A DNA stretch of 5,403 bases, from positions 1 to 5,403 of IMG/VR virus record IMGVR_UViG_2554235304_000010; one strand, written 5' to 3'. Within the stretch, counting starts at the first letter, position 1; each line of letters opens with the position of its first letter. The translations under genes were made by a program, and so were the position numbers. The stretch comes from a virus. Its lineage: Duplodnaviria > Heunggongvirae > Uroviricota > Caudoviricetes. The notes under the pieces were generated by a model. That model worked only from the letters and a program-made list of their open reading frames with translations, had not been told where the DNA came from and made no database searches. This document shows positions 3,895 through 4,487 of this stretch, in pieces.

Positions 3895-4487
3895 TGAAAC
3901 CTGTTTTTGATGAAAATGGACTGGCTACAGTGCCGGGTGATATGCGTTGTTTTTATTATGATGCAGTAACGTCTGAATATACGGGCTGGTCTGATGAATA
4001 TATTAATACTGGCGTAAGTATGCCCGCCTGTTCCACTGGTATTGACCCGGGCGAAAACATTCCGGGGCAAGTGGCAGTATTCACGGGTAAGGGATGGAGC
4101 CATGAAGAGGACCATCGCAATGAGACTGTTTACTCAATCGAAAATGGCGCAGCTGTTACAGTGGATTATATCGGTGCCATCAAAGACGGTTATGTCACGC
4201 TTTCACCGTTAACGCCATACGATAAATGGGATGGTGAGAAATGGGTGACGGATACCGAGGCACAGCATAGCGCCGCAGTAGACGCGGCAGAAGCACAGCG
4301 CCAGTTGCTGATTGATGCTGCAATGGCTTCCATTAGTCTGACTCAGCTGAAATTACAGGCCGGGCGGAAACTGACGCAGGCAGAAACAACCCGGCTTAAC
4401 GCTGTGCTGGATTACATTGACGCGGTGACGGCAACAGATACCAGCACCGCGCCGGATATCAATTGGCCTGCTCCCCCGGAGGCGTAG
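3894..4487 (+). CDS. tfa: Tail-fibre assembly protein (Tfa/gpU-like chaperone) paired with the alternative fibre tip
   Basis: A 197-aa ORF with GAGGG at 3882-3886 and its start overlapping the upstream stop. Translation contains ...GQVAVFTGKGWSHEEDHRNETVYSIENG...YDKWDGEKWVTDTEAQ... and ends ...TATDTSTAPDINWPAPPEA, closely matching the lambda Tfa family (recalled lambda Tfa: ...[25 protein letters not shown]...YQKWNGTAWVKDTEAE...RVDTSTAPDIEWPAVP). Confidence 0.88.
   Translation: MKPVFDENGLATVPGDMRCFYYDAVTSEYTGWSDEYINTGVSMPACSTGIDPGENIPGQVAVFTGKGWSHEEDHRNETVYSIENGAAVTVDYIGAIKDGYVTLSPLTPYDKWDGEKWVTDTEAQHSAAVDAAEAQRQLLIDAAMASISLTQLKLQAGRKLTQAETTRLNAVLDYIDAVTATDTSTAPDINWPAPPEA

Follow-up and report, generated by a model that had tools for sequence, protein, structure and literature searches.

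A conserved 29-bp overlap of convergent tail-fibre chaperone genes at the central joint of an invertible segment in a Mu-like prophage

Introduction

The closest described relatives of the locus analysed here are three invertible segments, namely the P segment of e14 in Escherichia coli K-12 (stfP-tfaP / tfaE-stfE, with pinE), the G segment of phage Mu (S-U / U'-S', with gin) and the C segment of phage P1 (S-U / U'-S', with cin). In the K-12 annotation, tfaP (1208132-1208545, plus strand) and tfaE (1208517-1209119, minus strand) of the P segment overlap by 29 bp. Between the U and U' genes of Mu there are 28 nt of spacer, in which a perfect GC-rich hairpin of 8 bp is found, AAGGCCCG-ATAG-CGGGCCTT, with a T run next to it (AAUUUUUAUU on the U' strand), and U' and U of P1 are 28 nt apart as in Mu. 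A modular role has been described for the Tfa domains (PMC9608196), and, for strain E2348/69, experiments by Goldberg et al. demonstrated phase variation in culture at an invertible locus of its Mu prophage (PMC4272514). In the literature that we searched, which lay outside the original P-segment and e14 analyses and included PMC12529663, PMC4406740 and PMC9881135, no discussion of the overlap itself was found.

Results

Prophage context

The window, by which we mean the whole stretch of 5,403 nucleotides analysed here (positions 1 to 5,403 of IMG/VR record IMGVR_UViG_2554235304_000010), begins with genes of the E. coli ethanolamine operon, which give way to a prophage end as follows:

217-1302, eutA of the E. 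coli ethanolamine operon, within the left 3.1 kb of the window
1314-2675, eutB of the same operon
from 2696, the first ~155 codons of eutC, cut by the prophage end at 3160
3160-3259, end of a Mu-like transposable prophage, starting TGTAACTTCGCG and interrupting eutC

Homology to the prophage end that lies beside melA in strain tcmA_3 begins exactly at 3160, and Mu-type baseplate genes adjoin that copy. The E2348/69 genome has the same eutC junction, with a flank (2900-3450) that is 100% identical up to 3450, while segment 3432-5352 is inverted in the window relative to all four E2348/69 assemblies. Since the eutC junction is shared with E2348/69 and 3432-5352 is reversed, these alignments show that the window holds the invertible tail-fibre segment which EPEC E2348/69 carries in the Mu-like prophage within eutC, flipped with respect to the reference. 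It represents the alternative phase of the locus already reported to phase-vary (PMC4272514).

Two further observations concern the prophage end. Besides the copy that truncates eutC at 3160, an identical end (locus L001, position 6001), including the truncated invertase gene described below, lies beside melA in tcmA_3; since the same truncated gene is found at both the eutC and the melA sites, the phage lineage would have transposed after the invertase was lost. Just inside the prophage end there is also a 19-nt inverted repeat (3188-3206 / 3227-3245; 84% complementary, with an 11-bp perfect core), next to which TTTTTGG follows on the minus strand. This repeat could terminate transcription exiting the segment, or serve transposase binding at the Mu-like end.

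Crossover sites, orientation and invertase remnant

The remainder of the window contains a compact switch with the following elements:

3261-3370, minus strand, remnant of a serine DNA invertase gene (pin/gin/cin type), 31 codons, translation MFIGYVRASTNDQ
3397-3894, plus strand, open reading frame Sv, predicted silent alternative C-terminal part of the tail fibre, with a weak Collar-domain match
3425-3450, left crossover site, reverse complement TTCTCCCAAACCAACGTTTATGAAAA, central dinucleotide at 3437-3438
3894-4487, plus strand, tfa, TfaE-like tail-fibre assembly chaperone of 197 aa (the 'B-side'), Pfam PF02413
4459-4875, minus strand, tfa', tail-fibre assembly chaperone of 138 aa (the 'A-side'), Pfam PF02413
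4878-5402, minus strand, tail-fibre gene in the predicted expressed configuration, variable part Sv', Pfam Gp53-like_C (E 4.8e-8)
5334-5359, right crossover site TTCTCCCAAACCAAGGTTTTCGAGAG, central AA at 5346-5347

The two crossover sites form an inverted repeat (TTCTCCCAAACC-AA-GGTTT...), and both can be aligned with cixL/cixR of P1 and gixL/gixR of Mu. Their positions agree with the strain comparison, in which the E2348/69 flank match stops at 3450 and the inverted-segment match runs from 3432 to 5352. Three hallmarks of the G, C and P segments are present here: inverted gix/cix-type sites of ~26 bp at the segment flanks, the existence of both orientations (the window versus the four E2348/69 assemblies), and a constant fibre N-terminus outside the segment with alternative C-termini inside, in frame across the site. 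A further one, an adjacent functional serine invertase gene, is missing, and only the frameshifted 31-codon remnant is found in its place.

From the reading frames, the orientation of the switch can be read. On the minus strand, the reading frame entering at 5402 meets its first stop at 4878, beyond the right crossover site, and thereby fuses Sv' in frame to a constant fibre part that extends past the window edge. Because this frame is open through the crossover site, Sv'-tfa' is predicted to be the expressed pair and Sv-tfa the silent pair in the window orientation. Sv here lacks a connection to the constant N-terminal part, to which it is joined in the E2348/69 reference as a 249-aa fibre gene directly 5' of tfa. 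Each chaperone gene lies directly downstream of a fibre receptor-binding end, with Sv (3397-3894) leading into tfa at 3894 and the end of Sv' at 4878 leading into tfa' at 4875. In the PGAP annotation, the detached fibre-tip fragments at crossover sites are called partial 'integrase' pseudogenes (L001 6274-6735 and 8175-8396; L003 4172-4633), which looks like a recurrent mis-annotation of tail-fibre C-terminal parts.

The invertase remnant remains recognisable for 31 codons, after which one extra T shifts the frame and the gene is truncated. When aligned with the 5' ends of cin, gin, pinE and the intact invertase gene of ES4, it gave a mean column identity of 87%. In the P1 annotation the recombinational enhancer occupies nt 19-90 of cin, and by analogy its counterpart here falls at ~3281-3352, so that the remnant covers the homologous stretch and may retain a Fis-dependent enhancer. 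With the invertase reduced to 31 codons, flipping would have to rely on an enzyme encoded elsewhere; the cis sites for inversion may survive while the enzyme comes from outside, and the retained enhancer-homologous stretch may explain the continued inversion of the segment. Part of the remnant (3340-3358, codons for ...YVRAST...) also shows a 19-nt, 84% complementary match to 4506-4524 in tfa' (LMRVDT), which is probably due to chance.

The two chaperones and the geometry of their overlap

Both predicted proteins belong to the Caudo_TAP family (PF02413, cut-off 22.1 bits, exceeded by both). The plus-strand protein matches the profile with E 2.3e-26 (92.9 bits) up to its last position, 131 of 131, ends in ...DINWPAPPEA before the TAG stop at 4485-4487, and is identical to WP_000805554.1. 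The minus-strand protein matches with E 1.8e-31 (109.5 bits) up to residue 133, leaving the last residues, GEQAN, outside the match; it ends in ...VWPTPPGEQAN before the TGA stop at 4461-4459, is identical to WP_001032314.1, and likely starts at the ATG at 4875, as in PGAP, rather than at the TTG at 4905. Its C-terminal 68 residues align to Mu Tfa (PDB 5YVQ chain B) with E 3e-9, and by homology to Mu Tfa both proteins would act as chaperones on their cognate fibres.

The preliminary description of the window had reported that these two genes overlap tail-to-tail by 29 bp, and this holds, with both reading frames and both stop codons as placed there. The joint consists of two nested elements:

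4459-4487, both strands, dual-coding overlap of tfa and tfa', 29 bp, delimited by the two stop codons
4464-4491, quasi-palindromic 28-mer TGGCCTGCTCCCCCGGAGGCGTAGGCCA with its axis between 4477 and 4478, made of the back-to-back W-P-x-P-P codons

The same description had the W-P-x-P-P motif of both proteins encoded by the same 29 bp, which needs correction. The motif codons lie at 4464-4478 on the plus strand and at 4491-4477 on the minus strand, so that they abut back to back with only the two nucleotides 4477-4478 in common, and the W-P of the minus-strand gene falls outside the overlap. In the 28-mer, 22 of the 28 positions match its own reverse complement, while only 5 of the 5,375 28-mers in the window reach at least 20 of 28.

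Past its own motif, each gene reads the motif of its partner antisense until a stop is reached. The TAG of the plus-strand gene is the antisense of the P-T codons (CCT ACG) of the minus-strand gene, whose TGA is in turn the antisense of the I-N codons of the plus-strand gene. In this frame arrangement, a third codon position in either gene pairs with a second position in its partner, and hence hardly any substitution would be silent in both. The GEQAN tail extends beyond the Pfam domain and also beyond the ends of Mu U and U', which is consistent with a by-product of reading the partner antisense. A variant locus provides a direct display of the stop-codon interlock: in L060 (688-749) the B-side has D in place of the N before W, the loss of this N codon removes the stop of the partner, and the overlap grows to 62 nt.

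An antisense frame that stays open for 2-5 extra codons is unremarkable on its own, and we have asked whether a sequencing or annotation error could have moved one of the stops and created an overlap that does not exist. The joint does contain a C5/G5 run, and in the phage record vB_EcoM-813R1 (P1-like; L180 2893-2905) one base is missing from this run, so that both tails are frameshifted and tfa' would become 231 codons long, the cause being a sequencing error in the homopolymer or else a genuine mutation that hits both genes. The window itself is a different matter. Segment 3432-5352 is 99.9% identical in the four E2348/69 assemblies, and 3160-5402 is 99.5% identical in two other genomes; the 29-nt overlap sequence is the same in several unrelated genomes and viral contigs (L001, L004 and four IMG/VR loci); and RefSeq/PGAP annotates the same 29-bp overlap, with WP_000805554.1 and WP_001032314.1, in tcmA_3, E2348/69 and ES4. 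The stops are also 29 nt apart in 46 of the loci surveyed and for 136 of the 137 pattern matches (see below), and both proteins reach the end of the Pfam model. Such recurrence in independent assemblies rules out a sequencing artefact. An artefactual overlap is therefore almost certainly not the explanation.

Two classes of convergent chaperone junctions

To place the joint among its relatives, we have surveyed 164 loci, made up of the reference loci and of IMG/VR contigs for which tfa' and Mu U had served as queries. Among the 114 convergent Tfa pairs, the stop-to-stop distance was -29 in 46 loci (37 distinct junctions), +28 in 64 loci of the Mu/P1 type and some other value in 4, counts that come from related enterobacterial prophages found with biased queries and hence do not represent independent events. 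Convergent chaperone pairs fall into two sharp classes, one with a 29-nt overlap and the other with a 28-nt spacer holding a terminator hairpin. The comparison with e14, Mu and P1 that the preliminary description had proposed gave the same 29-bp overlap in e14 and the 28-nt spacer in both Mu and P1.

In the overlap class, the A-side ends in WPTPP followed by a five-residue tail, which is GEQA(S/N) in most loci and AVQAR in e14, and the B-side ends in WP followed by a five-residue tail, mostly (V/A)PPE(A/V) and in e14 ELPEA. The window shows every property of the e14-type joint (stops 29 nt apart, WPTPP+5 on one side and WP+5 ending in EA or EV on the other), and it lacks the mark of the Mu/P1 type, a GC-rich hairpin terminator within 28 nt of spacer between the two stops.

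The overlap class is widespread. When used as a DNA pattern, the joint was matched in species-representative genomes of Escherichia, Shigella, Citrobacter, Kluyvera, Trabulsiella and Candidatus Erwinia dacicola, and in at least 120 viral contigs. The stops were 29 nt apart on both strands in 136 of the 137 matches from species genomes and viral contigs, and 249 of the 251 flanking reading frames fit the Tfa profile. The same 29-bp overlap is annotated also in ECSD228 and in the phage record vB_EcoM-720R4, and cassettes with the e14-type joint were seen in Mu-like, P2-like, e14-like and P1-like genomes. A geometry kept across dozens of diverged cassettes is beyond chance.

Conservation of the joint and exchange of modules

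Over 38 distinct junction sequences, column conservation reaches 94-96% in the ~30-nt joint, compared with 52-75% in its flanks. The chaperone bodies on either side are diverse: at 70% identity the chaperones form 22 A-side and 10 B-side clusters, which occur in 27 combinations. Members of one chaperone family occur both as A-side and as B-side proteins, and the side determines their tail, as seen for the A-side protein of L079 and the B-side protein of L062 (90% identity over 109 aa). Moreover, 36 pairs of loci, one of them being the window and e14, are mosaic, with at least 90% identity on one side, unrelated sequence on the other and the break at the joint, the breakpoints being resolved to 15-45 nt by ungapped comparison. 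The joint thus marks a module boundary, where chaperones have been exchanged between phages. In some contigs (L055, 2772-2919; L176, 7605-7633 and 7780-7808) the joint is present twice, the copies lying ~150-175 nt apart on both sides of a short additional 3' piece of a chaperone gene, and this arrangement suggests a local duplication or a failed module exchange at the joint.

The 36 mosaic pairs and 27 A/B combinations, the presence of the joint in genomes of the Mu-like, P2-like, e14-like and P1-like kinds, and its being the most conserved stretch of the region could all be taken to mean that the ~30-bp joint was selected as a recombination adapter, that is, as a short universal homology for swapping fibre-tip and chaperone modules across phage families. 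However, ~30 bp is close to the lower limit for efficient homologous recombination, the same conservation peak is predicted by the dual-coding constraint alone, so that the joint may be no more than the most constrained piece of sequence between two exchangeable modules, the breakpoints are resolved no better than 15-45 nt, and longer homology is available nearby in the conserved C-terminal helical region of the Tfa proteins. We therefore regard selection as an adapter as quite unlikely.

Transcription across the joint

The preliminary description had also argued that the overlap leaves no room for a terminator between the convergent genes. This is borne out, as there is no intergenic space at all, and the hairpin of Mu and P1 has no counterpart in the window. 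When folding energies were compared with those of shuffled sequences, the window junction gave z values of -1.3 and -0.4, as against -3.5 and -4.1 for the Mu spacer, and 39 of 40 distinct junctions of the Mu type contain the hairpin. We also asked whether a hairpin formed by the quasi-palindrome might itself terminate transcription in both directions, and rejected this, since it folds no more stably than shuffled sequences and neither strand has a T run.

A consensus terminator scan of the window returned 3 sites where 2.1 were expected, which amounts to no signal. A looser, energy-based scan picked out a plus-strand hairpin at 4494-4529 with a T run at 4532-4540 (-9.3 kcal/mol), and minus-strand candidates at 4455-4441 and 4392-4357, inside the opposing gene. 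Candidates of this kind, a hairpin plus a T run, accompany 51-69% of junctions and 24% of background windows, although the junctions are related to each other and the structures are poor. Weak hairpins embedded in the opposing genes could nevertheless act as terminators. Rho prefers RNA rich in C over G, and the untranslated read-through RNA, with a C/G ratio of 1.3, would suit it as a substrate. Antisense read-through into the silent chaperone, the consequence drawn in the preliminary description, is plausible from the sequence, and either Rho or the weak embedded hairpins could stop it. Scanning of the window for promoter-like sites found none in the silent module; as an antisense RNA would then have no sense partner, a regulatory role for it is unlikely.

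These data bear on a further possibility, namely that the absence of a terminator was itself selected. Transcription of the active module would then cross the silent chaperone and fibre tip in antisense and afterwards enter the invertase gene in sense, either silencing the inactive module or coupling the invertase to late transcription. The lack of any intergenic space, the junction hairpin that is no better than shuffled sequence, the strong Mu/P1 hairpin that stands at the equivalent place and is missing from the overlap class, and an invertase gene that in e14, ES4, ECSD228 and Mu points the same way as the active fibre genes would all fit such a scheme. Yet the silent module has neither a promoter-like site nor a constant fibre part, so that there is nothing to silence; the invertase gene of the window is down to 31 codons while the joint is unchanged; and an untranslated C-rich RNA with a C/G ratio of 1.3 is the usual kind of Rho substrate. 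We hold selected read-through to be unlikely.

Discussion

Taken together, the above results are probably best explained if the overlap is the conserved central joint of an invertible host-range cassette of the e14 (P-segment) type, and a by-product of how an inverted duplication became compacted around its axis rather than a dedicated regulatory device. Two modules, each of a variable fibre tip with its chaperone, would face each other in a segment of ~1.9 kb between cix/gix-like sites, and a Pin/Gin-type invertase would flip the segment such that in each orientation the constant fibre gene is connected to, and transcribed with, only one of the modules. The last W-P-x-P-P codons of the two chaperones would sit back to back around a CCGG axis, with each gene running a few codons into its partner antisense until the conserved codons of the partner supply the stop (TAG from P-T; TGA or TAA from I-N). 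Almost any change here would alter a protein, and the joint would thereby be frozen. That the overlap class is without the spacer hairpin of Mu and P1 would be a side effect of the same compaction, and, with this hairpin missing, transcription of the active module would run into the silent module and stop there or further on, through Rho or at weak embedded hairpins.

The anatomy of the switch, the conservation of the joint, the mosaicism of the modules and the contrast with Mu and P1 can be read directly from the loci compared. An origin of the joint by inverted duplication is suggested by the quasi-palindrome, and the ending of transcripts by Rho or weak embedded hairpins is likewise suggested by sequence features. 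Against this explanation, recent shared ancestry together with dual coding could by themselves account for the conservation of the joint, the loci surveyed being related enterobacterial prophages found with biased queries, and candidate hairpins downstream of the stops are commoner than in background (51-69% versus 24%), which makes embedded terminators possible. It is also conceivable, but very unlikely in our judgement, that the dual-coding quasi-palindrome is a selected element, which would serve as a universal adapter for Mu-, P2-, P1- and lambda-like phages and at the same time allow read-through into the invertase gene in place of the Mu/P1 terminator. If this were true, switching would be linked to lytic growth.

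The overlap as such is an ordinary feature that is already present in the K-12 annotation (tfaP/tfaE), and the Mu-like prophage of E2348/69 is already known to carry this tail-fibre switch. What our analysis adds is the division of the junctions into two sharply defined classes, with an overlap or with a spacer and terminator hairpin; the locking of the stop codons into conserved codons of the partner, which would account for the non-family GEQA(S/N) tail; and the recognition that the joint, the most conserved stretch of the region, also delimits the modules that are exchanged. All three should be of use in annotating prophage tail-fibre cassettes. They also matter for host-range engineering by swaps of fibre-tip and chaperone modules, because an edit to the C-terminus of one chaperone also edits the other.

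Among the described systems, the P1 C segment is the same kind of switch as that in the window, with cix sites that align with the crossover sites and a cin 5' region, including the annotated enhancer, that aligns with the invertase remnant; unlike the window, P1 has an intact cin and the Mu-type spacing of U' and U, although the P1-like phage vB_EcoM-813R1 carries an e14-type cassette. The Mu G segment shares with the window the Mu-like prophage setting, the alternative fibre tips, Caudo_TAP chaperones (Mu U, PDB 5YVQ chain B, being alignable with tfa') and gix-like sites, as well as an invertase gene that lies on the far side of the segment and is transcribed away from it. It differs in the spacer with its perfect hairpin and in chaperones that end in WPQKPE* and FPEQPE* with no extra tail. 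In the P segment of e14, as in the window, two convergent modules of fibre tip and chaperone lie between crossover sites, the joint has the A-type (WPTPP...) and B-type (WP..PEA) endings, and tfaE is 94% identical in nucleotide sequence to the plus-strand gene of the window up to the joint. In contrast, the body of TfaP is unrelated to tfa' except at the C-terminal end, pinE is intact where the window keeps only a remnant, and the host element is the lambdoid e14 and not a Mu-like prophage; the 29-bp overlap is nevertheless the same in both.
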